From the NCBI GenBank assembly GCA_002010665.1, contig MTON01000027.1:22780-86779 (forward strand): a DNA stretch of 64,000 bases, read 5' to 3'. The DNA is from Candidatus Aminicenantes bacterium JdFR-78 (GTDB lineage: Bacteria; Acidobacteriota; Aminicenantia; JdFR-78). The notes under the pieces were generated by a model that was given only the letters and a program-made list of their open reading frames with translations, was not told the DNA's origin and searched no databases. Of this stretch, positions 52,853 through 64,000 are shown piece after piece; the first letter of the stretch is position 1, and each line of letters begins with the position of its first letter. The position numbers and the translations under genes were made by a program.

Positions 52853-55800
52853 ATGAAATTAAAAAGCATATTTGTTTTTATTCTGGCATTTATTTTATGT
52901 TATGGGATTGTTTATGCTCCTCAGGAAGCAAGAGTTCTTCGTTTTCCAGCAATTTATAAGGATCAAATAGTTTTTACCTATGCTGGAGATTTATACACTG
53001 TTTCAGCAAAGGGTGGAATAGCAAGAAAGCTTACAAGTCATGAAGGTTATGAAATGTTTGCTCGTTTTTCTCCTGATGGAAAGATGATTGCTTTCACAGC
53101 AGAATATGATGGAAATCGAGAAGTTTATGTGATGCCAAGCAAGGGAGGTATTCCAAAAAGAGTTACCTATACACCTGTTTTAAGGAGGGATGATGTTGCG
53201 GATAGAATGGGTCCAAACAATATTGTAATGGGATGGAAACATGACAACAAACACATTGTTTTCCGTTCACGAATGAGGGAATGGAATAGCTTTAATGGTC
53301 AACTTTATCTTGTCCCATGTGATGGTGGAACTCCTGTTCAGTTACCTCTACCAAGAGGAGGATTCTGTTCCTTTTCTCCGGATGATAAAAAGCTTGCTTA
53401 TAATCGTATATTTCGTGAATTCAGAACATGGAAAAGATATAGGGGCGGAATGGCGGATGATATATGGATTTATGATTTTGAAACTAAAAAAGTAACAAAT
53501 ATTACAAATAATCCAGCACAGGATATTATTCCAATGTGGAGTGGAGATAAAATTTACTTCCTTTCTGATAGAGACGAAAACAAGAGAATGAATTTATATG
53601 TATATGACCTGAAGACAAAACAGACTCGGAAACTTACAAATTTCACAGAATATGACATCAAATTCCCGTCTCTGGGTCCGGACGCAATAGTTTTTGAATA
53701 TGGTGGATACATTTACCGCTTTGACTTAAAAACAGAAAAAGTTTCCAAGGTTCCAATTTTTATTGCTGATGATATGGTTACTGGAAGGGATAAGATAATA
53801 AATGTAAAGGATTATATTACAACCTTTCATGTCTCTCCAGGAGGGAAAAGAGCACTTTTTGGTGCAAGAGGAGAGATATTTACAATTCCAATTAAATATG
53901 GAAATACCAGAAATTTAACAAATACCTCTGGTGTTCATGAAAGAAATCCCCGATGGTCACCTGATGGAAAATGGATTGCATTTATTTCAGATAAAAGCGG
54001 AACAGGGGAAATTTATATTATGCGACAGGATGGTTCAGGTAAACCAGAACAGCTTACCTTTAATGGAGATACATATAAATATGAAATTCTCTGGTCTCCG
54101 GATGGAAAAAAGATTATGTGGAGTGATAAAAAACTTAGATTGAATTATGTTGATGTGGAGACCAAAAAGGTTGTGCAAGTGGCAAAGGCTGATATTTGGG
54201 AAATTCGTCAATATTGCTGGTCTCCTGATAGTAAATGGATAGCATATGCAAAGCCAGAAGTTAAAGGCATGACAAAAATTTATTTATATAATCTGGATAC
54301 AAAGAAGACATATGAAGTGACAGAAGGGTGGTATTCCTCATATGCTCCTTGTTTCAGTTCTGATGGAAAATACCTCTTCTTTGTTTCTGATAGAGAATTT
54401 AATCCTGTTTATAGCAGGGTGGAGTGGAATTATGCCTATCTTGCAATGGCAAAAATTTATTTTGTGACATTGAGGCGGGATATAAAGTCTCCATTTGAAC
54501 CTAAGAGTGATGAGGTTGAGATAAAAGAAAAGGAGAAAAAATTGCCTGAAAGTAAATCCAAGAAAGGTAAAGAGAAAAAAGTAAAAGAGAAAAAGAAAGT
54601 AGTAGAGGTTAAGATTGACCCTGTTGGACTGAAAGACAGAATTATTGCACTTCCAATTGAAACCGCTAACTACTGGCATATCACATCAATTGGAGACAGG
54701 ATTTATTATATGAAAAGAAAAGATCTGGAAAGGAAGTCATATTTGATGATGTATGACCTGAAGGCGCAAAAAGAGACAAATCTTGGAAATATTGATAGAT
54801 ATGAAATTTCTCCTGATAAGAAAAAGATGATTATAAGGAAAGGGAAAGACTATGCAATAATAGATTTGCCCGTTTCTCCAATAAAAATAAAAGAGAAACT
54901 AGACCTTTCTCATATGGAGATGAAGCTTAATCGGAAGGAAGAGTGGAATCAGATTTTTAATGAGTGCTGGCGTCATATGAAATACTTCTTCTATGACCCA
55001 AACATGCATGGAGTGGATTGGGAAGCAATGAGACGCAAATACGAACCCCTGGCAAGAGCAGTTAATCATCGCGCAGATTTGACTTATGTGATAGGAGAGA
55101 TGATTGGAGAGTTAAATGTTGGTCATGCTTATGTGGGTGGAGGAGATGTGCCAAAAGTTAAAAGGATTAAAGTTGGTATGCTGGGTGCCCAGTTTGAGCG
55201 GGATCCAAAAACTGGATATTACAAAATTGTAAAAATTCTGAAAGGACAGAACTGGAGCAAGAGACTCAGGTCACCTTTAACTGAGGTTGGTGTTAATGTT
55301 AAAGAAGGGGAATATTTAATTGCAATTAATGGAAAGCCAACAAATAAGATGAAAGACATGTATGAGGCTCTGGTTAATACAGTAGGGAAGCAGGTTAAGC
55401 TAAAAGTAAATAGTAAACCGACGGAAAAAGGTGCAAGAGAGGTTGTGGTTGTTCCGATTGAGAGCGAACAGGACCTTTATTACTATAACTGGGTTCAGAA
55501 AAATATTGAAAAGGTTAATAAAGCGACAAATGGAAAAGCGGGTTATATTCATATTCCGGATATGGGAAGAAGAGGCCTCAATGAATTTGTGAAGTATTTT
55601 TATCCTCAGCTGAGAAAAAAGGCTTTAATTATAGATGTTCGTGGTAATGGAGGAGGAAATGTTTCTCCAATGATAATTGAGCGTTTGAGAAGAGAAATTG
55701 CAATGATTGGGATTGCAAGAAATACTGTGCCGAGCCCTGACCCAGAAGCTCTAATACTCGGTCCAAAGGTGTGTTTGATTGATGAATTTTCAGCCTCAGA

Positions 55801-56140
55801 TGGAGATATTTTCCCTTATAGATTTAAGAAATATAAACTTGGAAAGTTAATTGGAAAACGGACATGGGGAGGCGTTGTTGGTATCAGAGGCACTTTACCT
55901 CTTGTTGATGGTGGATATTTAATGAAACCTGAATTTGCTATTTATGATACAGAAGGGAAGAAGTGGATTATTGAGGGTCATGGTGTGGAACCTGATATCT
56001 ATGTGGATAATGACCCAGCGAAAGAGTATGCTGGAATAGATGAACAGTTGAATAAAGCTATTGAAGTTATTCTTGAAGAGCTGAAGACAAAAGAAAAAGA
56101 ATTACCTCCACCACCACCTTATCCAAAGAAAGATAAATGA
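52853..56140 (+). CDS. Tricorn-protease homolog (S41 family) with tandem beta-propellers and PDZ domain
   Basis: 1095 aa, signal peptide, repeated 'SPDGK' blades, PDZ. C-terminal S41 catalytic domain ('VRGNGGG', 'FSASDGD', 'EGHGVEPD'). Confidence 0.8.
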   Translation: MKLKSIFVFILAFILCYGIVYAPQEARVLRFPAIYKDQIVFTYAGDLYTVSAKGGIARKLTSHEGYEMFARFSPDGKMIAFTAEYDGNREVYVMPSKGGIPKRVTYTPVLRRDDVADRMGPNNIVMGWKHDNKHIVFRSRMREWNSFNGQLYLVPCDGGTPVQLPLPRGGFCSFSPDDKKLAYNRIFREFRTWKRYRGGMADDIWIYDFETKKVTNITNNPAQDIIPMWSGDKIYFLSDRDENKRMNLYVYDLKTKQTRKLTNFTEYDIKFPSLGPDAIVFEYGGYIYRFDLKTEKVSKVPIFIADDMVTGRDKIINVKDYITTFHVSPGGKRALFGARGEIFTIPIKYGNTRNLTNTSGVHERNPRWSPDGKWIAFISDKSGTGEIYIMRQDGSGKPEQLTFNGDTYKYEILWSPDGKKIMWSDKKLRLNYVDVETKKVVQVAKADIWEIRQYCWSPDSKWIAYAKPEVKGMTKIYLYNLDTKKTYEVTEGWYSSYAPCFSSDGKYLFFVSDREFNPVYSRVEWNYAYLAMAKIYFVTLRRDIKSPFEPKSDEVEIKEKEKKLPESKSKKGKEKKVKEKKKVVEVKIDPVGLKDRIIALPIETANYWHITSIGDRIYYMKRKDLERKSYLMMYDLKAQKETNLGNIDRYEISPDKKKMIIRKGKDYAIIDLPVSPIKIKEKLDLSHMEMKLNRKEEWNQIFNECWRHMKYFFYDPNMHGVDWEAMRRKYEPLARAVNHRADLTYVIGEMIGELNVGHAYVGGGDVPKVKRIKVGMLGAQFERDPKTGYYKIVKILKGQNWSKRLRSPLTEVGVNVKEGEYLIAINGKPTNKMKDMYEALVNTVGKQVKLKVNSKPTEKGAREVVVVPIESEQDLYYYNWVQKNIEKVNKATNGKAGYIHIPDMGRRGLNEFVKYFYPQLRKKALIIDVRGNGGGNVSPMIIERLRREIAMIGIARNTVPSPDPEALILGPKVCLIDEFSASDGDIFPYRFKKYKLGKLIGKRTWGGVVGIRGTLPLVDGGYLMKPEFAIYDTEGKKWIIEGHGVEPDIYVDNDPAKEYAGIDEQLNKAIEVILEELKTKEKELPPPPPYPKKDK

Positions 56141-56264
56141 GAAATGTGAAATGTAAAATGAAAAGCTGAATATCGAAAAACGGAAACCGGAAATCGGAAA
56201 ACGGAAATTAAAAATAATCTTTCATTCAATTTTTTCTGCATTTTCGATTTTCTTTAAGTCATCA

Positions 56265-56298
56265 ATAAAGGCGTCATACGCCTTTATACAATATTTTT
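56265..56298 (+). terminator. Rho-independent terminator after the tricorn gene
   Basis: 10-bp stem ATAAAGGCGT / ACGCCTTTAT with 3-nt loop, followed by 'ACAATATTTTT'. Confidence 0.5.
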
Positions 56299-56461
56299 GA
56301 CAGTGAAGGGCATATATAAAAAATTCTTTAAAGACAAGTATTTAGAAGAAAAGTAAATCGTATACCATAGAAGAAAACGACAGAGTTTTCCGCATCCTCA
56401 GAGGTTACAGAGTCTTCTGAAAAAAATGATTTTTTTCATAATGGATAATTTTTCATTGGAA

Positions 56462-57601
56462 TTAATATTTTATCTCATTCCAGTTTTCAATTTTTAATCT
56501 TTTAATCATTATATTTCCTGTTTCCTTGGAGCGAAGAAGAGAATAGATATAACCTCGCTTGATTACATGCGGATAGCAAGGTAACTTCGTATAATACAAG
56601 AACTTCCCTTTTGAACTGAAAATATCTATGTCCCATTCCTCTCTCTTATCAGATGGTGACTTAAATTTAATTACCCATATTCTTCCTTTCTCGTCAGTAA
56701 GTATATCAGTAAAAAATGGACAGTATTCAGGAATATACATCCTCTTTAATTTTTTGGCTTTCCTTGGAACAGGAATCGGATTTTCATCTTTTTTTATTTC
56801 AAAAATTAAATTACCTTCTTTATCAAGAACAAATAATCTATATTCATCTGACTTTGCATATATAATTTTATTTTCAAATGAAGCGAGAACTAATCTTAGA
56901 GCATATGGGCTCAAAACTCCTCCAAAAACTCCTCCACCTCCTTTGCCTTTTATTTTTATATTTCTCTCAATTAATTTATCTATTTCTTTTATCAGTTTGC
57001 CTTTAAAATCCAGCATAACAAGACAGTTGTATGCTCCGCTTTCCTCAAATTGAAGAACTGGAATAAAAATTCTCTGCTCAGATGTAATTACAAAGCGAAG
57101 ACCTAAATAAGGAGGGATTGAAAAATCAAAAGTCGAATAATCACAGGGAATTCTCTCTACAAAATCTCCATTTTTATTAAACTTCTCAATCTCTCTTCCA
57201 TCTTTAACATATATGTTATCTTCAGTGTCAATAAATATAGAAACTGGAAATTCAAACTCACCAGGTCCTTTCCCTCTTCTTCCAATTGTTTTAAGGTATT
57301 TTCCATTTTTATTAAATACTTGAACTCTACAATTTCCCCTATCAACTATATAGATGTTTCTCCTGCTATCAACCCCAATATCTGAAACCCGATAAAACAT
57401 ATAATTCTCATCTATTTCTGATTCCTTGATTGTTAAGTCTTCCTTTAATTTAAGTTTTAATTCACTACATTCAGGGTTAATCTCAGAACTACATATTTCT
57501 ATAAAAGCAAAAAACATAAAATAAAGAAGACATAACAAATAACCCTTTTTATTTTGTGTTCTCATCTGATAATTTTTTATAAAATAATTTTCGAATTTCA
57601 A
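56462..57601 (-). CDS. Secreted NHL-type beta-propeller protein (paralog family A, copy 1)
   Basis: Signal peptide. First blade is a canonical NHL repeat 'GRRGKGPGEFEFPVSIFIDTEDNIYVKD'. Paralogous to 57912-58999, 60322-61446 and 63693->64000. Confidence 0.55.
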   Translation of the reverse strand: MKFENYFIKNYQMRTQNKKGYLLCLLYFMFFAFIEICSSEINPECSELKLKLKEDLTIKESEIDENYMFYRVSDIGVDSRRNIYIVDRGNCRVQVFNKNGKYLKTIGRRGKGPGEFEFPVSIFIDTEDNIYVKDGREIEKFNKNGDFVERIPCDYSTFDFSIPPYLGLRFVITSEQRIFIPVLQFEESGAYNCLVMLDFKGKLIKEIDKLIERNIKIKGKGGGGVFGGVLSPYALRLVLASFENKIIYAKSDEYRLFVLDKEGNLIFEIKKDENPIPVPRKAKKLKRMYIPEYCPFFTDILTDEKGRIWVIKFKSPSDKREEWDIDIFSSKGKFLYYTKLPCYPHVIKRGYIYSLLRSKETGNIMIKRLKIENWNEIKY

Positions 57602-57602
57602 G

Positions 57603-57908
57603 CTATGTTTTAGTGTAGGGGCAGCATCTACTATAAGAAGCTACTGGCTCGTTATTAATAATGCACTGGCATAAAACGCATTCTCTTGAACCGCCATCAA
57701 TTCCACAAAAAACGTCCTCGCAATAACCAAATGTCTCACAAAAAATAATAAGAAATCCTTCTCTGCTTCGTTCGCAAATAAGGGAGGCTCGGCAGTGTTT
57801 TCTTTCTGCCGCATGAACAAATTTTACCACCATAAGTATTGCTAAAATTAGTGCTATCCCAATGCTTAAACCAATTAAAAGATGTTTGTTTTTTGATAAA
57901 CTTTTCAT
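57603..57908 (-). CDS. Small Cys-rich protein with N-terminal signal/anchor (101-aa class)
   Basis: N-terminal hydrophobic helix then 11 Cys in about 65 aa. SD 'AAGGGGA' 6 nt upstream. Stop lies 1 nt from the start of the downstream beta-propeller gene. Confidence 0.5.
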   Translation of the reverse strand: MKSLSKNKHLLIGLSIGIALILAILMVVKFVHAAERKHCRASLICERSREGFLIIFCETFGYCEDVFCGIDGGSRECVLCQCIINNEPVASYSRCCPYTKT

Positions 57909-57911
57909 TTT

Positions 57912-58999
57912 AATCCCCTTTTAAAGTTTTGGAATTTTAAACTTTATAAATTTTAATTCATATTTATCCTTTAAATGTCCATATTCAAGAACATATTTCC
58001 TATTTTTTCTATCTAAAGCAAAACCCCGGAGAATAAAAGGAACATTTTTTATAAATAATTTAATAAATTTATTTTTATAATTTCCATTTAAATCAAAAAT
58101 ATATACTTTTCTCCTTATTCCACATAATAAATTATTTTCTATAACTTCTATTCCAAAAATGTATCTAATAGCATATATTCCATCCTCACTTATTACATTC
58201 TGAGGGGTTTCAAATGGAAGTTTTGATTCTTTTATAAATTTATCAATTTCTAATACACCCCTGACTTTTAATTTTCTTAAGTTTCTAAAAAAGACTAACT
58301 CACCTTTTGAAGTATATTTATATATTTAAATATAACTGGATAAAAAACGAACGCACCGTATATATTGTCTTTGTTATCTATTATTAATTTTGCTTTATTA
58401 AAAAAACAATATGCTTCTATATCTTTTGTAGGAATTATTTTTCCAAAGGTCTTTGTTAGTTTACCGTTTTCATTAAAACCAGAAATCAATTTTTTATTCA
58501 AGAATTTGCTTTTATTTTTACTATCAAGAAAAATCATTTTTTTAGAACCAACTACAATTGAACTCACCCCATATAATTCCTCTTGAATGGAAATTTTCTT
58601 TTTAAATTTTCCGCTTAAATCATATACTTTAATACTGTTATCACCATTTATTATGTAAATTAATCCTTTTTTAATAAAAAAGGCTTGAGGCTTATAAAGT
58701 GATTGCTCATCTTGACCTATCTGTCCAATTTGTCCAATTATTTTACCTTTCTCATTTAACTTTAAAATTCTGTGATTCTCTCTATCCAAGGCATAGATAA
58801 TACCGTCATTGTAAGCAAAAAGTGTTTGCGTCAAATAAAAATTAAGATTCATTTTATCAAAATCTTCTGTCTCTGTGTCAAAAAGCACCTTTGCATTAAC
58901 TTTGATTTCTTTCTCAAAGGCTGGAGAGGAGATTAAAAGGTGGAACGATATTATTAAAAGATAAAATAGAATTAAAAGTAATTTAAATATTCTCTTCAT
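57912..58999 (-). pseudogene. Frameshifted paralog of the NHL beta-propeller family
   Basis: ORF 58295-58999 (234 aa) stops at about two-thirds of paralog length. The remaining C-terminal third ('...DGIYAIRYIFGIEVIENNLLCGIRRKVYIFDLNGN...') continues in a different frame to a TAA at 57921-57923 with no ATG. Shift lies near an A6 run at about 58285-58291. Confidence 0.5.
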
Positions 59000-59849
59000 T
59001 TACTCTTCATAAGCAATTTTAGTATCGCATTAAATATATACTCTTCGCTCATTCCAATTTTCTCAACGAAAATTATTTTTTTATTTTTTATTAATACGGT
59101 AAAAGGATCATTCTTTAAAAAATCATCAGTAATATATTTTTGCTCATCTGGTAATAAATTGAAATTGGGGCATTAAATATATCTCAAAAGGTATTTTTAT
59201 ATATCCTTTAATTTCCTTTACATCATTACTGTTAAATGGATCAAGAAAAGTAATCAACACCCTGCTTTTAATCTTTTCTTTTTTCAATCTGTCCCGTAGC
59301 TTAATCAAGGTATTAATTCTTTTCCCTGTCTTGCACAAGCTGCAAAAAGATGAAAAAATAGTTAAAATTATATTATCTCCTCTTGAAATATTTCTTAGGT
59401 AAATTTTTTTTTCTTCCTCACATCGTAAAGAATTAAATCAGGAACTTCTTTCCCTTTAATAAATATCGTCTGCTCAGACGGTTTTTTAAATATATAATTA
59501 ATTTTCCCAAGGATACTCTTTTCCACCAATTGCCTCATCTCTTCTTCACTGATTAAACTTTTTGAATAAAATTCAATTTTCCATTTTTAAAATCTTTGTC
59601 TTTATATCGCTTAAATAATACTTCTGCATAAACTAATTTGAATTTGTCAGATATGTATAGGGGGTCAAAAAATAGAATAAAAAGATTTTTCACTTTTTCT
59701 TCACATAAAACAAATAAGTTTCCATTAATATCCTCAGCGTAAAAGTCCGGAGCTCTGTCTCCATAAGAAAATGCTTTTTTCTCCACTCCCACCAAGAAAG
59801 ACCAGAGGAAAATTGTTAAAATCATTGCTGAAATCAGCAATGCACTCAA
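58996..59849 (-). pseudogene. Disrupted TlpA-like thioredoxin-fold gene (at least two frameshifts)
   Basis: Three frames each match successive parts of the intact copy 61931-62497: N-terminal anchor plus 'APDFYAEDINGN' (frame of 59553-59849), CxxC 'FCSLCKTG...' (frame of 59144-59338), C-terminus '...KIGMSEEYIFNAILKLL' (to 58996). T9 homopolymer at 59404-59412. Confidence 0.45.
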
Positions 59850-59877
59850 TACGTTTATTGACTTCTTAAATCTCGTT

Positions 59878-60300
59878 ATCCCTTTGCACTAAAAAATTTA
59901 TTTATCAAATATCATAAAGTCAATTAATTTTATTCGTAAATTTTCCGATTTGATATCTTGCTCTATATTCGGAAGGAGTGACACCTTCCATTTCTTTAAA
60001 ATCTTTATAGAAATTCTGAACGAATTTATATCCAACTCTATATGAAATCTCTTTTATACTCAATGAATCACCTTCTAAAAGCTTCTTTGCTTTTTCAATT
60101 TTCCTTCGCTTTAAATAAGCTTTAAAAGTCATTCCAATTTCTTTTTTAAAAAGCTCGCATAAACGAGAACGACCAAGACAACAGTATTTTGTAATAGTTT
60201 TTAGACTTATCTTTTTATCTAAATTCTTTTCTATAAACTTAAGAGCTTTTTTGACTCTTAAATCCATTTTTCATAAAATTTAGGACTAAAAAGAGGAAAA
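59878..60300. repeat. About 420-bp segmental repeat (copy 2) carrying the AraC gene and its flanks
   Basis: Near-identical at nucleotide level to 62484-62950, including the 'CCCTTTGCACTAAAAAATTTATTTATCAAA' 3' flank and 'ACTAAAAAGAGG..AAACTT' 5' flank. Confidence 0.7.
59920..60267 (-). CDS. MarA/SoxS-sized AraC-family HTH regulator (copy 2)
   Basis: 115 aa consisting only of the dual-HTH AraC DNA-binding domain. Nearly identical to 62532-62897. Confidence 0.75.
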   Translation of the reverse strand: MDLRVKKALKFIEKNLDKKISLKTITKYCCLGRSRLCELFKKEIGMTFKAYLKRRKIEKAKKLLEGDSLSIKEISYRVGYKFVQNFYKDFKEMEGVTPSEYRARYQIGKFTNKIN

Positions 60301-60321
60301 ACTTAAACTAATTATTATAAA

Positions 60322-61446
60322 TTAATCTTTAATTTTTAAAGAATATACTGCAAAACTTGGAGTTACTTCATCAATGCAAAATGTATAAATATTATTATTT
60401 TCATCAATATCCATTATCGTTTCTGGGCCAAATTTTATATCCTTCTTTATTAAAGTCCCATCTAAAGAAAAAATGTCCAGATAATTTCTCGTCTTTTTAA
60501 TTCCCTTTTCTCTATAAGTCTCGGATAATTGAACTACTACATGGTTTTCTTTTGTAAAATGAACTCCTGCAATTACAATTAATTTTTCAATAGAATCCAT
60601 GATTCTCTGAATTTCTGCAACACTTTTAATTTTTTTTACGCTTAATTCGACTAGTTTTTTAGGAAATTTATAACCTGGGATTTTTCTTCCAAATTTTCTT
60701 ATCACTTGTCCATTTGTATTCAGAATATAAATTATATAAGGATTCGAGGGTTCAAAATGTGCAAATGCAATTAGATTATTTTTAACATCTATACTCCCCA
60801 TATAAGGCGTATGCAAACTATCCTTTCTTGGTTTTGGCCTATCCGGGAGAACTTCCTCAAAAAATGATTTAATGTATTTTCCAGTTCTATCATAAACATG
60901 AATATGATATTTTGACATAAGTTGTGGAGGGAAATAATAAATTACAATATTTCCATTTATGTCAAAATCCATACTTCGAGGATATTTCCAAGGCATGAGT
61001 TTTATAGATTTAATAAAATTCAAAGAATTATCAAAAATGCTTATTCTTCTGTTTCTAATTTCAGCTACCCAGATATTTCCTTTCTCATCAATTGCAAAAT
61101 GAGAAGGAGAATCAAGCTCTCCAGGTCCTTGTCCTTTTCCTCCTGCTTCTTTTATAAATTTTCCATCCTTTGAGAATTTCTTAATTGTATGTCCTTTAAA
61201 ATCAAGAACAAAGATATTACCATCTCTATCAGCTTTAATATCAGTTATCAGGAAAAAAAGCTCTTCTTTCTTTTCTTCACTTCCGATTTTGAATTTTTTT
61301 TCAATAATTACTTCTTTACCTAAAATTCCATTTGTTATAATAATTAAGCTTAGAAAAACCACAAAGATCTTCCTCATTCTTTCTCTCATTTTTTCATCCC
61401 CTGTTTGATATTTATCTATAATTACTATTGAGCTATCTCTATGCAT
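60322..61446 (-). CDS. Secreted NHL-type beta-propeller protein (paralog family A, copy 3)
   Basis: NHL blade 'GGKGQGPGELDSPSHFAIDEKGNIWVAE'. Probable true start at the internal 'MRERMRKIFVVFLSLIIITNG' signal peptide (about 61389). Confidence 0.6.
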   Translation of the reverse strand: MHRDSSIVIIDKYQTGDEKMRERMRKIFVVFLSLIIITNGILGKEVIIEKKFKIGSEEKKEELFFLITDIKADRDGNIFVLDFKGHTIKKFSKDGKFIKEAGGKGQGPGELDSPSHFAIDEKGNIWVAEIRNRRISIFDNSLNFIKSIKLMPWKYPRSMDFDINGNIVIYYFPPQLMSKYHIHVYDRTGKYIKSFFEEVLPDRPKPRKDSLHTPYMGSIDVKNNLIAFAHFEPSNPYIIYILNTNGQVIRKFGRKIPGYKFPKKLVELSVKKIKSVAEIQRIMDSIEKLIVIAGVHFTKENHVVVQLSETYREKGIKKTRNYLDIFSLDGTLIKKDIKFGPETIMDIDENNNIYTFCIDEVTPSFAVYSLKIKD

Positions 61447-61646
61447 TTTTCGTAAGAAATTCTACATCCTGTTGTGCATTCATGAAATAAACCAAAAGGA
61501 ATATAGGCAACACACATTAAAACGCAAGCCTCATATAAATCCTCGCATTCTTCTTCTGTTATTGCTAAAACCGGTTTTTGTTTAGTAAGAAATAAGTTTA
61601 AAATTAAAATGAAGGAAATAATAATAATCAATAATTTTTTTACCAT
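61425..61646 (-). CDS. Small secreted Cys-rich peptide precursor (73-aa class, copy b)
   Basis: Signal peptide with 'PVLA|IT' cleavage-like site. Mature about 45 aa with C-x6-C-x3-C ... C-x3-C-x6-C spacing. Confidence 0.5.
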   Translation of the reverse strand: MVKKLLIIIISFILILNLFLTKQKPVLAITEEECEDLYEACVLMCVAYIPFGLFHECTTGCRISYEKCIEIAQ

Positions 61647-61686
61647 CTCTTACCTCCTGCTTTATTCTAATTTATTAATTAAGCGG

Positions 61687-61908
61687 TTACTCCTCAGCCA
61701 TACTCATGCAAAGTTCAAAGAAAATTCTACATCCTTCTTGACATCCATAATTCGAACCACAACTTTCTTGACATGCAGAAAAAATTTCAAGGCAATCTTT
61801 TTCTGTTACTTTTGCAATCATTGATTTTTGAAAAATAGTTAAGAAACCAAAAACAAGGAACATTAAAAGAGCACTCGTTAATAAGAATACTTGAATTTTT
61901 TTAGACAT
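61687..61908 (-). CDS. Small secreted Cys-rich peptide precursor (73-aa class, copy a)
   Basis: Signal peptide 'SMIA|KV'. Same mirrored six-Cys spacing (CLEIFSAC QESC ... CQEGC RIFFELC). Confidence 0.5.
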   Translation of the reverse strand: MSKKIQVFLLTSALLMFLVFGFLTIFQKSMIAKVTEKDCLEIFSACQESCGSNYGCQEGCRIFFELCMSMAEE

Positions 61909-61930
61909 CCTTACCCCCTGAATTTTATTT

Positions 61931-62497
61931 TTAAAAAATTAATTCTCTTAATTCATAATAATCACTCCCATCTAATTCACCTGTTTTTATCCATTCAACT
62001 TTGCCTTTCCCATTAATTAAAATAGTCTGAGAAAATTTCGAAATTCTGTAATCTCGAATAAATTTTTCTCTATTTTTAGGAGTATAAACTGGAATGTCCA
62101 CTTTTAAATATGATTTTAAATTTCGTGCATCTTTCAGTTCCCTTAAACTGATTAATAGTACCCTTGCCTTATCTTTAAGTTGGTAACTTAACCTTCTCCA
62201 AAATATTAAATTTTTATCACAAGGAATACATGAATTTGTTTGAATGAAAAGCAATGTTTTCTTATTATTATTGAAATCAATAAATTCTATTTTGCCATCT
62301 AAATTAACTGCTTCTATAGGAGGTGCATAATCGTCTGGGATTAGATGAGGAATTTCTTTTCTTAATGCTATTATATGAGCTTTAAGCCTTCTATTTTGAA
62401 TTATTAATATCACTATTTCTAGTAAAATCAACAAAATTAATATTCCTATTAAAAAATTAACTAATTTTTTATATTTCATTGTATTATCCCTTTGCAC
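61931..62497 (-). CDS. Membrane-anchored TlpA/ResA-like thiol:disulfide oxidoreductase (thioredoxin fold, CxxC)
   Basis: N-terminal TM, 'APPIEAVNLDGK' start of the thioredoxin domain, active site 'SCIPCDKN'. Likely start is the ATG at 62479 (SD 'AAAGGGA') rather than the GTG at 62497. Confidence 0.7.
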   Translation of the reverse strand: MQRDNTMKYKKLVNFLIGILILLILLEIVILIIQNRRLKAHIIALRKEIPHLIPDDYAPPIEAVNLDGKIEFIDFNNNKKTLLFIQTNSCIPCDKNLIFWRRLSYQLKDKARVLLISLRELKDARNLKSYLKVDIPVYTPKNREKFIRDYRISKFSQTILINGKGKVEWIKTGELDGSDYYELRELIF

Positions 62498-62950
62498 TAA
62501 AAAATTTATTTATCAAAAATCCTAAAGTCAACTAATTTTTATTCGTAAAATTTCCGATTTTGTTAGTAAATTTTCCGATTTGATATCTTGCTCTGTATTT
62601 GGAAGGAGTGACACCTTCCATTTCTTTAAAATCTTTATAGAAATTCTGAACGAATTTATATCCAACTCTATATGAAATCTCTTTTATGCTCAGTGAATCG
62701 TCTTTTAAAAGCTTCTTTGCTTTTTCAATTTTCCTGCGCTTTAAATAAGCTTTAAAAGTCATTCCAATTTCTTTTTTAAAAAGCTCGCATAAACGAGAAC
62801 GACCAAGACAACAGTATTTTGCAATAATTTTTAGACTTATCTTTTTATCTAAATTCTTCTCTATGAACTTAAGAGCTTTTTTGACTCTTAAATCCATTTT
62901 TCATAAATTTCCCTTTCCATTAATTTAGTACTAAAAAGAGGGAGAAACTT
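62484..62950. repeat. About 470-bp segmental repeat (copy 1) carrying the AraC gene and its flanks
   Basis: See copy 2. Contains an internal 21-nt tandem duplication ('GTAAAATTTCCGATTTTGTTA'). Confidence 0.7.
62532..62897 (-). CDS. MarA/SoxS-sized AraC-family HTH regulator (copy 1)
   Basis: 121 aa AraC dual-HTH domain. C-terminus carries a 21-nt tandem duplication relative to copy 2 ('IGKFTNKIGNFTNKN' vs 'IGKFTNKIN'). Confidence 0.75.
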   Translation of the reverse strand: MDLRVKKALKFIEKNLDKKISLKIIAKYCCLGRSRLCELFKKEIGMTFKAYLKRRKIEKAKKLLKDDSLSIKEISYRVGYKFVQNFYKDFKEMEGVTPSKYRARYQIGKFTNKIGNFTNKN

Positions 62951-63390
62951 GAAAATTTTTGAAATTTTTATAAGTTAAGTAAAGCCAATAAGTTAAATAG
63001 ATAGTTTTCTATCCACGAATCAAAAGATTTTTTTTATATTTTGAGGAAATCATAAAAAAATTCGATAAAAAAAATGACAAATTTCTCATTAATATGAAAA
63101 GATGTTTAAATAGTAGAAAGATGCTTTCTTTAAGTTAAACTGTTCGGAATAACAATTTGTCCAAAAATTTTGTGAAAGAAAAGATAGACAGGCTACTTTT
63201 TATTACCTCTCTTTTTAGTCTCTCCTCTATTTTTATCATTTCGAATCAGATTCTATATGAATTTTTATAATTATGACGATCGGTAAAGTAACCTATTCTT
63301 TTTTATTTACCATCTCATTCCTTTCTAATTTAAACTTGTTTCCCCCTACCGATTTCTTTTTACCCAGAATATTATATCTTAGGAATCAAA

Positions 63391-63696
63391 TTAACGACAG
63401 CAAGTTCTGCGATATTCGTCACAATACCAATAAAACCATTCCCAAGGCCCTGTACATTCTATTAACCATTCAGAACGACAAATGCAATAACCATCACACC
63501 AGGCTTCCTCTAATGTGTAGTTTTTACAATTTCTTTTTCCTCCACAATCTTCAACACAATGTTCACGAGCAAGACTTTTACATAATATTGTGGGTGTGCA
63601 AGATTTTGGTTCATCTGCAAATAGATATTTAATCAAAATTAAATCAAAACATAAAATTAAACCTAAAATAATTAAAAGAAGAAGATTTTTCTTCAT
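63391..63696 (-). CDS. Small Cys-rich protein with N-terminal signal/anchor (101-aa class)
   Basis: Hydrophobic N-terminus then 12-13 Cys in about 70 aa. ATG overlaps the TGA of the upstream beta-propeller gene (ATGA). Confidence 0.5.
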   Translation of the reverse strand: MKKNLLLLIILGLILCFDLILIKYLFADEPKSCTPTILCKSLAREHCVEDCGGKRNCKNYTLEEAWCDGYCICRSEWLIECTGPWEWFYWYCDEYRRTCCR

Positions 63697-64000
63697 TTTT
63701 GACTCCTTAAATTAAATTTTTTAAAAATCTTATTTTGGTCAACTTGTTGCTTTTTCTTTTTATAGATTATTATTTTTGTATTACTTAAAACTGCGTAGAT
63801 ATTTTTAATGTTATTAATACAATAAATTCCATCAGTAGTATTAGGAACTTCTATACAAGAAACAAAACTTCCATTTTTTCTAAATATATATATTTCTTCT
63901 TTTTTGATAGAACTATTAAAATAAAAAAGATATAAATTTTCGTTATTATCCGATAAAAATTCATGAAATGCTACCCTATATCTCCCTTTGGATAATGATT
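63693..64000 (-). CDS. C-terminal part of a fourth NHL beta-propeller paralog (5' end beyond window)
   Basis: Open frame from the window edge to TGA at 63693-63695. '...YIFRKNGSFVSCIEVPNTTDGIYCINNIKNIYAVLSNTKIIIYKKK' resembles the C-termini of the other paralogs. Confidence 0.4.
   Translation of the reverse strand, partial: SLSKGRYRVAFHEFLSDNNENLYLFYFNSSIKKEEIYIFRKNGSFVSCIEVPNTTDGIYCINNIKNIYAVLSNTKIIIYKKKKQQVDQNKIFKKFNLRSQK

Follow-up and report, generated by a model that had tools for sequence, protein, structure and literature searches.

Three adjacent cassettes pairing small cysteine-rich secreted proteins with DUF5128/NHL propellers and thioredoxin-like proteins in an Aminicenantes genome: a candidate disulfide-folding module

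A private disulfide-forming pair that serves one cysteine-rich (Cys-rich) client is known from the methylamine dehydrogenase (mau) gene cluster: MauE and the thioredoxin-like MauD have long been tied to maturing the six-disulfide small subunit of this enzyme, and a 2026 preprint reports that MauE can stand in for DsbB in E. coli by way of a CXC site, probably acting via a thioredoxin-fold intermediary (bioRxiv 10.64898/2026.03.05.709764). Here we describe a locus that comes close to this logic, in a stretch of 64,000 nucleotides (nt) of contig MTON01000027.1 of Candidatus Aminicenantes bacterium JdFR-78 (the window). A single minus-strand array fills the last 7.5 kb of the window (56462-64000) and holds three adjacent cassettes, each of which combines one or more small secreted Cys-rich proteins with its own propeller and a membrane thioredoxin-like (Trx-like) gene. 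The mau cluster is the nearest analogue in logic, having a propeller, a small exported protein with many disulfides and a CxxC thioredoxin-fold protein, with MauE present in loci related to the array. It differs in that the array propeller is of the six-bladed NHL/DUF5128 type whereas MauB is seven-bladed, in that the small proteins of the array are hypervariable and have no similarity to MauA (six disulfides), and in that the array has no MauG, amicyanin or other mau gene and the window has no MauE.

Several other described systems share part of this design. The nearest published hint of MauE/MauD-type genes beside small Cys-rich precursors outside the methylamine pathway comes from decRiPPter, where passages of the study report Streptomyces candidate families of ribosomally synthesised peptides that undergo post-translational modification (RiPPs) with mauE/mauD homologues and precursors of 8 or more cysteines (PMC7794033). 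These are actinobacterial predictions, and the passages concerned mention no propeller (PMC7794033), whereas the array peptides have ordinary signal peptides and a DUF5128 propeller as constant partner. NHLRC2 and SOQ1 join a thioredoxin-like module to an NHL propeller and so provide evidence of cooperation between these folds (PMC6107167); both are single polypeptides that bear a CC(I/V)NC motif and lack a small Cys-rich companion, and their sequence similarity to the array is distant. The best sequence matches of the Trx-like protein of the array are ResA, StoA and TlpA, with which it shares an N-terminal anchor, a thioredoxin fold and a C-x-P-C active site. The known enzymes are reductants for cytochrome c, spore cortex or copper-site assembly; the array enzyme differs from them in an invariant serine at the cis-proline position, in Pfam scores below cut-off and in its client, which would apparently be the adjacent Cys-rich mini-protein.

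Small disulfide-rich peptides in the periplasm are also familiar from the E. coli heat-stable enterotoxins, which are exported by Sec, receive their disulfides from DsbA in the periplasm and exit via TolC-dependent pumps. Tripartite pumps likewise stand beside cassettes in Ignavibacteria and in one further locus (L091), but the enterotoxins rely on the general Dsb machinery and lack a partner of the propeller kind, and no pump gene adjoins the array in the window. The features of class II bacteriocins and microcins (double-glycine leader, C39-peptidase ABC exporter, immunity gene) do not fit the array, which contains no ABC exporter or peptidase; a preliminary description of this DNA had already noted the mismatch with a standard bacteriocin locus, and we likewise find no double-glycine leader, exporter or protease. 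Its suggestion of a RiPP-like peptide finds no footing: neither the cassettes nor their relatives contain RiPP modifying enzymes (radical S-adenosylmethionine enzyme, YcaO, lanthionine synthetase etc.) beyond the oxidoreductase, and the peptides have ordinary Sec-type signal peptides, not leaders. As judged from gene content, disulfide formation is the only candidate chemistry in the cassettes. PADLOC gives no match for any of the eight array proteins, and in the searchable literature we find no description of these cassettes or of DUF5128 partner systems. The principle of giving a small client a disulfide-folding system of its own, seen in mauE/mauD, is therefore known, while the cassette trio itself is undescribed in the literature found.

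Cassette layout and components

Feature coordinates are collected in Table 1. Cassette 1 reads AraC, Trx, peptide, peptide, propeller, with every gene uninterrupted from 62897 to 60322 as first reported. Cassette 2 reads AraC, Trx pseudogene, propeller pseudogene, peptide, propeller. Cassette 3 lies mostly beyond the window edge and has a two-domain Trx gene and a propeller followed by the 12-Cys peptide gene; we read its remainder from public contigs bearing identical genes (L001 etc.; the numbers L001-L100 denote loci or contigs retrieved via the propeller alone or via individual proteins), and as far as these contigs reach they hold no AraC gene for it. The preliminary description had seen four genes recurring in fixed order, a point that has to be given up since the three cassettes differ in order, with the peptide following the propeller and no AraC on the available DNA in cassette 3. 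It was right that a third instance continues past the edge, where 64000-63699 encodes the C-terminus of the third propeller and public contigs supply the rest. Its tandemly repeated cassette survives as three cassettes side by side but not as repeated DNA: only the AraC gene and a spacer of ~55 nt before the Trx gene are repeated (95-96% identity), the remainder of cassettes 1 and 2 is unrelated at the DNA level, the propeller paralogues of the three cassettes are 21-24% identical to one another, and the peptides belong to three unrelated families. By these comparisons the cassettes are old paralogues. We also considered a recent tandem duplication of entire cassettes, which is ruled out by the restriction of the DNA repeat to the AraC segment. 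Spacing is tight throughout: intergenic gaps in cassette 1 are 22-54 nt, and the peptide and propeller genes are 1 nt apart in cassette 2 and overlap by 4 nt in cassette 3.

Table 1. Features of the array and its edge, in window positions
Feature	Position	Strand	Details
Terminator-like hairpin	56265..56287		between array and convergent Tricorn-type protease gene
DUF5128/NHL propeller, cassette 2, intact	56462..57601	-	379 aa; DUF5128 50.4 bits
10-Cys protein, secreted, cassette 2	57603..57908	-	101 aa; stop codon 1 nt from next propeller start
Propeller pseudogene, cassette 2	57915..58999	-	234-aa N-terminal ORF (58999-58295), frameshift near 58322, ~125 aa in other frame
Decayed two-domain Trx-like gene, cassette 2	59144..59849	-	three-frame translation
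Promoter-like element TTGACT-17-TAAATT, copy 2	59895..59923	-	sequence scan; within AraC/spacer repeat
AraC-type regulator, HTH-only, cassette 2	59920..60267	-	115 aa; HTH_18 81 bits; repeat D1
DUF5128/NHL six-bladed propeller, cassette 1	60322..61446	-	374 aa; probable start 61389, giving 355 aa; signal peptide or anchor
6-Cys mini-protein, secreted, second	61425..61646	-	73 aa; paralogue of first, phmmer E=3e-6; signal peptide
6-Cys mini-protein, secreted, first	61687..61908	-	73 aa; C-x6-C-x3-C-x5-C-x3-C-x6-C; signal peptide
Membrane-anchored Trx-like protein, CIPC, cassette 1	61931..62497	-	188 aa (182 aa with the 62479 start chosen by public gene callers)
Promoter-like element TTGACT-17-TAAATT, copy 1	62503..62531	-	between AraC stop and Trx start; inside 95%-identical repeat D3
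AraC/XylS-type regulator, HTH-only, cassette 1	62532..62897	-	121 aa; HTH_18 82.8 bits, HTH_AraC
12-Cys protein, secreted, cassette 3	63391..63696	-	101 aa; 13 Cys in total, 13th within signal peptide
Propeller, cassette 3, C-terminal part	63693..64000	-	leaves window; full gene 363 aa, L001 1232-2323; DUF5128
aa, amino acids; ORF, open reading frame; HTH, helix-turn-helix.

Judged by substitution patterns and conserved cysteines, the small Cys-rich ORFs of all three types are true genes under purifying selection. Both 6-Cys genes have a ratio of nonsynonymous to synonymous substitution rates (dN/dS) of 0.11 against L087, a relative with an 84%-identical propeller, and the mature part of the first of them shows 0 nonsynonymous and 4 synonymous changes in this comparison. 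The 6-Cys family is small (11 matches among 5.8 billion proteins, P0121-P0131), and every member retains the six cysteines with their spacing conserved, all of them being kept in alignments A3 and A9. Homologues of the 10-Cys protein (P0133, 83%; P0134, 76%) retain all 10 cysteines, and its conservation is higher in the mature part than in the signal peptide. For the 12-Cys protein an exhaustive search returns eight diverged homologues (32-53% identity) with a common 10-Cys framework. The cysteine counts of 6 to 13 in the preliminary description are borne out (6, 6, 10 and 13), and its question of whether these ORFs are conserved as coding is answered by the low dN/dS and by the cysteine frameworks kept in diverged homologues. 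The signal peptides are Sec-type and end in AxA-like sites, and Pfam and NCBIfam give no match for the peptides of the window or of the related loci.

The AlphaFold2 model of the 6-Cys protein is a helical hairpin (helices 36-50 and 54-70, predicted local distance difference test (pLDDT) about 82) in which Cys39, 46 and 50 mirror Cys67, 60 and 56, and this mirror symmetry would be the geometry expected for three inter-helix disulfides. The model has no significant fold match in the PDB (best E above 5). Across the peptides, the number of cysteines after the signal peptide is even in 20 of 24 cases when counted by script and in two more by eye after boundary correction, and the sequences abound in aromatic and hydrophobic residues but contain little histidine. 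Taking the mirror symmetry, the even counts and the aromatic richness together, we favour disulfides over free thiols.

The small-protein genes are accompanied by genes for beta-propellers that score above the Pfam cut-offs, in agreement with the earlier NHL assignment. The propellers at 61446-60322 and 57601-56462 reach 41.2 and 50.4 bits for DUF5128 (cut-off 22.9 bits) and 27.6 and 27.5 bits for NHL (cut-off 20 bits). A Foldseek search with the AlphaFold2 model of the cassette 1 propeller (pLDDT 82, predicted template-modelling score (pTM) 0.80) returns the NHL domains of Brat, TRIM2 and TRIM71 at E=1e-15 to 1e-12, with target-normalised template-modelling (TM) scores of about 0.75-0.78, and the family profile also matches NHL domains in the PDB. 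The sequence profile matches Bacteroides BF0058 (PDB 4raa) at 5.7e-8; by fold, BF0058 and BVU_1028 (3s9j) match at E about 1e-10 with 12-14% identity, and both are likewise exported six-bladed propellers of about 360 residues. These two proteins have no known function, so the match adds no mechanism. The orthologue of the intact propeller of cassette 2 is the last gene of L087 (E=1.8e-39), and in the propeller alignment we see no catalytic-looking invariant residues outside the NHL structural motif. Signal peptides or lipoprotein-like N-termini mark the propellers, and an uncleaved anchor marks the Trx-like proteins; since the N-termini of peptides, propellers and Trx-like proteins are all of the export or anchor type, all three act outside the cytoplasm.

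Of the three cassettes in this strain, only cassette 1 encodes an intact CxxC enzyme. With its membrane anchor and CIPC motif it matches the TlpA-like label that it was given at first: among NCBIfam models it matches ResA (4.9e-8) and StoA (8.9e-6), the MauD model not being among these matches, and among PDB sequences StoA (3.6e-5) and also ResA, while the family profile aligns with PDB ResA at 1.9e-8 in an alignment that passes through the active site. Pfam AhpC-TSA, Redoxin and Thioredoxin_8 match below their gathering cut-offs. Orthologues occur in L008, L009, L087 and L090. In a test of the cis-proline, the position aligned with the proline of ResA 'LPT' is Ser156, which is invariant in five orthologues; the paralogue at L087 4771-5340 retains the cis-proline. 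A metagenome scan seeded with the Trx alignment A8 yielded two short contigs only.

Recurrence in other genomes

We find the same combination of genes in other Aminicenantes/Acidobacteriota, where one locus has Trx (CAPC), a 77-aa Cys6 peptide and a propeller (L008) and another an AraC-like gene, Trx (CVPC), a 72-aa Cys6 peptide and a propeller (L009). L090 consists of Trx (CVPC), a 79-aa Cys10 protein, an insertion-sequence remnant and a propeller, and L091 of a 79-aa Cys-rich protein and a propeller. The first part of L087 encodes an 83-aa Cys-rich protein, MauE (PF07291 at 1.1e-24, carrying CGCF), Trx, two Cys6 proteins and a propeller; its second part encodes AraC, a 326-aa protein, Trx (CWSC), a 71-aa Cys6 protein and two propellers. 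In three further loci (L098, L099, L100) a gene of the 12-Cys family sits ~20 nt behind a propeller gene of the cassette 3 clade (41% propeller identity), and the 6-Cys family goes with the clade of propeller 1 in six or more loci. The annotated neighbours of the loci include no member of the CcdA/DsbD family. Two neighbouring genes are recorded here for completeness: the remnant in L090 (2734-3129) is a 131-aa ORF between the peptide and propeller genes, read as an IS200-like transposase remnant without a family search, and the 326-aa protein of L087 (3782-4762), whose only match is a weak one to Pfam DUF5659, has no counterpart in the window.

Comparable arrangements can be seen in Ignavibacteria, Pyrinomonadaceae, Rhodothermales, Bacteroidota and Longimicrobiales (further loci L052, L060, L072). 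In Ignavibacteria (L015, L029, L045), tandem units of a peptide, a propeller lipoprotein and an anchored CxxC protein are followed by a resistance-nodulation-division (RND) pump; the link between these CxxC proteins and the Aminicenantes Trx-like family is moderate (hhalign probability 57%, E=1e-4). Pyrinomonadaceae (L026, L040) have AraC-like, MauE (E=4.5e-18 and 7e-19), Cys6 peptide(s), a propeller and a MacB-like permease, and L032 comprises two Trx-like genes, one of them lacking cysteines, along with a propeller and two peptides of 12 cysteines. Some loci lack the Trx gene or have MauE in its place. The gene order is found again in independent lineages, where protein identity is 35-40%, and also in other phyla. 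As a separate observation, the Ignavibacteria peptides (L029 999-3531, L045 2055-4653) share a conserved stretch that separates the membrane anchor from the Cys-rich end, e.g. ...LLGIEMQLFEPTYA, ...LFGLKISAFVSDTYA; it resembles a leader or recognition motif and does not occur in the Aminicenantes peptides.

Does this recurrence exceed what chance placement would give? In 80 loci, 16 of the 29 small signal-bearing ORFs with at least 4 cysteines lie within 700 nt of a same-strand propeller gene, where random placement of such ORFs leads us to expect 2.3 +/- 1.4 and none of 5000 permutations reached 16; among Cys-poor control ORFs, the count near propellers is 11 of 176. Together with L008, L009, L087, L090 and the other loci above, this confirms the co-occurrence of propeller, TlpA-like protein and Cys-rich ORF that the preliminary description had proposed to look for elsewhere, and it supports a conserved functional module made up of these components. 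The findings that the preliminary description had named as speaking against its interpretation did not turn up. As far as gene neighbourhoods tell, the module belongs to particular clades and not to every NHL propeller. The pairing of propellers with TlpA-family proteins in Bacteroidetes, to which the preliminary description had compared the array, could not be generalised: AhpC-TSA occurs in 3 of 122 immediate neighbours of diverse propellers, a figure that is an undercount because these Trx-like proteins match Pfam weakly.

Candidate function and rival explanations

We read the cassettes as private oxidative-folding units that serve disulfide-rich secreted mini-proteins and supply each of them with a cognate propeller, and we regard this reading as evenly poised between right and wrong. 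A private oxidative-folding pair is the most economical reading of the Trx-like gene because MauE, a DsbB-replacing oxidase, sits in related loci, and the MauE genes of L087, L026 and L040 lend independent support to the dedicated disulfide system put forward in the preliminary description. In the mechanism that we propose, the HTH-only AraC-type regulator would act at the promoter-like element before the Trx gene, and the operon, as its sequence reads, encodes one or two pre-proteins of 70-100 aa whose Sec-type signal peptides have AxA-like ends. After export, the membrane-anchored Trx-like enzyme would pair the 6, 10 or 12 cysteines in a MauD/DsbA-like role (both the chemistry and its direction are our supposition) and might be re-oxidised by a MauE-type quinone-linked oxidase, which is encoded at the homologous locus of a close relative and not in the window. 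The 6-Cys product would be a helical hairpin with three inter-helix disulfides, its fold being predicted and its pairing suggested by symmetry. The exported propeller would serve as the cognate binding partner, whether as carrier, receptor, immunity-like sequestering protein or subunit of a heteromer; we propose this because of the tight gene coupling, because peptide family and propeller clade are inherited together and because thioredoxin-like and NHL domains are fused in NHLRC2 and SOQ1, and, argued on genetic grounds only, it is the weakest link of the reading. Our leading guess for the final output is a secreted antagonistic or signalling mini-protein, and the RND/MacB-type pumps beside cassettes in other phyla could move periplasmic peptides across the outer membrane. 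The core of the first interpretation, a dedicated module for disulfide-rich secreted mini-proteins and a propeller partner, was right; a bacteriocin, toxin or signal function is unproven.

A number of observations weigh against oxidative folding with a cognate propeller. The 64-kb window contains no gene for MauE, DsbB or VKOR. ResA and StoA, the nearest solved relatives of the Trx-like protein, are reductases; its sequence cannot settle the catalytic direction, and the enzyme may behave atypically because an invariant serine occupies the cis-proline position. The closest species-level orthologue of propeller 1 (38% identity; L007, 5211-9122), which lies directly after a heavy-metal P-type (copper) ATPase, has neither a Trx nor a peptide gene at its locus, and the same is true of L089 (P0003). 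A Pfam census of 122 immediate neighbours at 76 diverse propeller loci is heterogeneous and shows no general partner family. Finally, two of the three oxidoreductase genes and one propeller gene of this strain are frameshifted, and since these lesions are tolerated, the cassettes should be individually dispensable.

Some of these same facts invite a different use of the cysteines, as thiolate ligands for metal. The Cys-rich proteins would then bind Cu(I) or Zn like metallothioneins or copper-storage proteins and be kept reduced by a TlpA/ResA-like reductase, with the propeller and the pumps in a metal-resistance pathway. The reductase nature of the closest solved relatives suits this explanation, as TlpA reduces copper-site proteins; so do the ATPase directly before the L007 propeller, the RND and membrane-fusion genes that flank the Ignavibacteria cassettes and the MacB-type genes in L026, L040 and L091, and helix cysteines at i, i+4, i+7 and i+11 would line a thiolate core as well. 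We nonetheless consider metal handling quite improbable: the module goes with MauE, which is an oxidase, the even cysteine counts of the 20 of 24 mature peptides and the mirror-symmetric spacing fit inter-helix disulfides, the aromatic and hydrophobic, histidine-poor composition is unlike that of metallothioneins, and Pfam and NCBIfam scans reveal no metal-sensing regulator or metallochaperone family. Disulfides could also serve a heteromeric periplasmic enzyme like methylamine dehydrogenase, in which the propeller would be the large subunit and the disulfide-rich protein a catalytic or cofactor-bearing small subunit matured by MauE/MauD-type proteins. The parts are those of the mau cluster (propeller, many-disulfide small subunit, MauD-like protein and, in L087, L026 and L040, MauE), and the translationally coupled gene pairs suggest stoichiometric partners. 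We give such an enzyme little credence, however, since the small proteins of different cassettes share only their cysteines and so have no conserved pair of cofactor-forming residues, family scans detect no MauG-like, radical-SAM or electron-acceptor genes, the propeller is of the six-bladed NHL type and not the seven-bladed MauB type, and the propellers show no catalytic-looking invariant residues beyond the NHL structural motif.

Another possibility is that the Trx-like protein and the propeller form a redox-repair or regulatory pair like NHLRC2/SOQ1 that acts on some other client, with the Cys-rich proteins as redox substrates or regulators. In that family, which has prokaryotic homologues, the thioredoxin-like and NHL domains are fused and shape a joint cleft round the active-site cysteines (PMC6107167), the title of a preprint reports methionine sulfoxide reductase activity for SOQ1, and both SOQ1 and NHLRC2 are among our sequence matches. 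The matches are weak, though (SOQ1 3e-5, NHLRC2 0.06), the CC(I/V)NC motif is missing from the array enzyme, which has CIPC, and the genes are separate, with Trx lost or exchanged for MauE in some loci. The NHLRC2 authors, moreover, saw no conserved operon partners (PMC6107167), whereas the small-protein gene is the most constant neighbour here, and we judge a pair of this kind very unlikely. There might, lastly, be no system at all, only a decaying array of unrelated exported or lipoprotein paralogue genes that are adjacent by chance. The frameshifts listed above are what such decay would produce, and the G+C content of the array (26-31%) is lower than that of its surroundings; yet independent lineages with proteins 35-40% identical, and other phyla too, repeat the gene order, Cys-rich ORFs are strongly enriched near propellers and the small genes are under purifying selection. 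Chance adjacency, already contradicted by these synteny and selection data, is hardly credible.

If the cassettes do fold disulfide-rich mini-proteins, several consequences follow. Bacteroidota, Acidobacteriota and related phyla encode many DUF5128-type propellers, which are of unknown function, and a constant, co-inherited disulfide-rich partner provides the first testable functional hypothesis for them. The newly proposed MauE disulfide pathway would gain natural clients from these loci, along with a likely thioredoxin-fold intermediary, and the MauE link falls in anaerobic uncultivated lineages whose route to structural disulfides is unclear. The mini-proteins would also be new disulfide-stapled scaffolds, such as a helical hairpin with three predicted rungs, from a subsurface organism of ~65 degC, and could serve peptide engineering or, if bioactive, antimicrobial discovery. 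We can carry the idea further: periplasmic systems of mini-protein and propeller might form a class of their own, spread over several phyla and not yet described, in which hypervariable disulfide-knotted proteins would act as secreted toxins or signals, each made with a private MauE/MauD-type catalyst, while a co-evolving DUF5128/NHL propeller would hold, carry or neutralise them. This extension is tentative and we would sooner doubt it than believe it, but if it were true, uncultivated Acidobacteriota, Ignavibacteria and their relatives would possess an architecture of bacteriocin/immunity-like or ligand/receptor type that is new, and DUF5128 propellers would have a first function.

Regulators, decayed genes and surroundings

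The regulators of cassettes 1 and 2 are AraC proteins of HTH-only form, as had been noted (HTH_18 83 and 81 bits, Pfam cut-off 33.6 bits). The AraC domain spans residues 12-104 and includes both HTH motifs of the AraC DNA-binding domain (HTH_AraC in two stretches); with no ligand-binding or dimerisation domain, this is the single-domain MarA/SoxS-like form, and the proteins align end to end with MarA, SoxS and RamA of NCBIfam. The cassette 1 gene is 96% identical in DNA to the copy at 59927-60226, and because the AraC genes are this similar while the other cassette DNA is unrelated, the comparison suggests that gene conversion, or else a recent copying event, was confined to the segment with the regulator and promoter. 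The TTGACT-17-TAAATT sequence listed twice in Table 1 also precedes the Trx gene of cassette 3 (L001 ~150-200), and we infer that it is a promoter. The 3' ends of the two AraC genes (62532-62560 vs 59920-59930) differ by a tandem duplication of ~21 nt, giving …KFTNKIGNFTNKN vs …KFTNKIN.

Decay affects cassettes 2 and 3. In cassette 2, where the TlpA-like gene and the first propeller gene were correctly called broken, the first domain of the Trx-like protein has no cysteines, while the second, which carries CSLC, can be read only by changing frame at least twice. One frame break falls at an A9 run (59404-59412, minus strand), where the CxxC domain exits the frame. This homopolymer is a possible slippage site, but simple phase variation is unlikely because more frame breaks lie downstream. 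The propeller pseudogene runs on in another frame to ~57915, so the apparent 386-nt gap is the C-terminus of the propeller; by tblastn the uninterrupted propeller ORF of L097 spans both frames at 86-87% identity. The 2-kb region of cassette 2 is identical in four assemblies, lesions included. Sequencing error was considered as the source of the frameshifts and ruled out by this identity and by the intact propeller frame of the relative L097. The Trx-like gene of cassette 3 has the same two-domain design and is cut in two where an A5 run (L001 ~855-861) shifts the frame by a single base, its downstream CLGC domain having no start codon of its own; adding one A gives a 299-aa protein equivalent to the intact two-domain homologue of L098 (300 aa, second domain CFQC).

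All public contigs with the array end ~60-200 nt upstream of the cassette 3 Trx gene, ~2.3 kb past the end of the window (seen at L001 1-204 and at the ends of L002-L006 and L092-L094), which suggests an assembly-breaking repeat at the shared contig end. Rfam detects nothing on L001 and L002, both of which contain the array, and the L001 terminal end shows no Rfam family, no tRNA and no match elsewhere in the window; its terminal 100 nt are unusually rich in G+C. Within the window, the 493 nt between the 12-Cys gene and AraC (62898-63390) have no ORF longer than 37 aa on either strand, except an antisense ORF that overlaps the peptide gene, and presumably hold the AraC promoter. At its other end the array faces a convergent gene for a Tricorn-type protease homologue (52853-56140, plus strand; 1095 aa, signal peptide), which adjoins the array in all assemblies and is not present in the related locus L087. 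The G+C content of 26-31% over 56001-64000 compares with 31-37% in the preceding 10 kb, and could reflect foreign origin or relaxed constraint.

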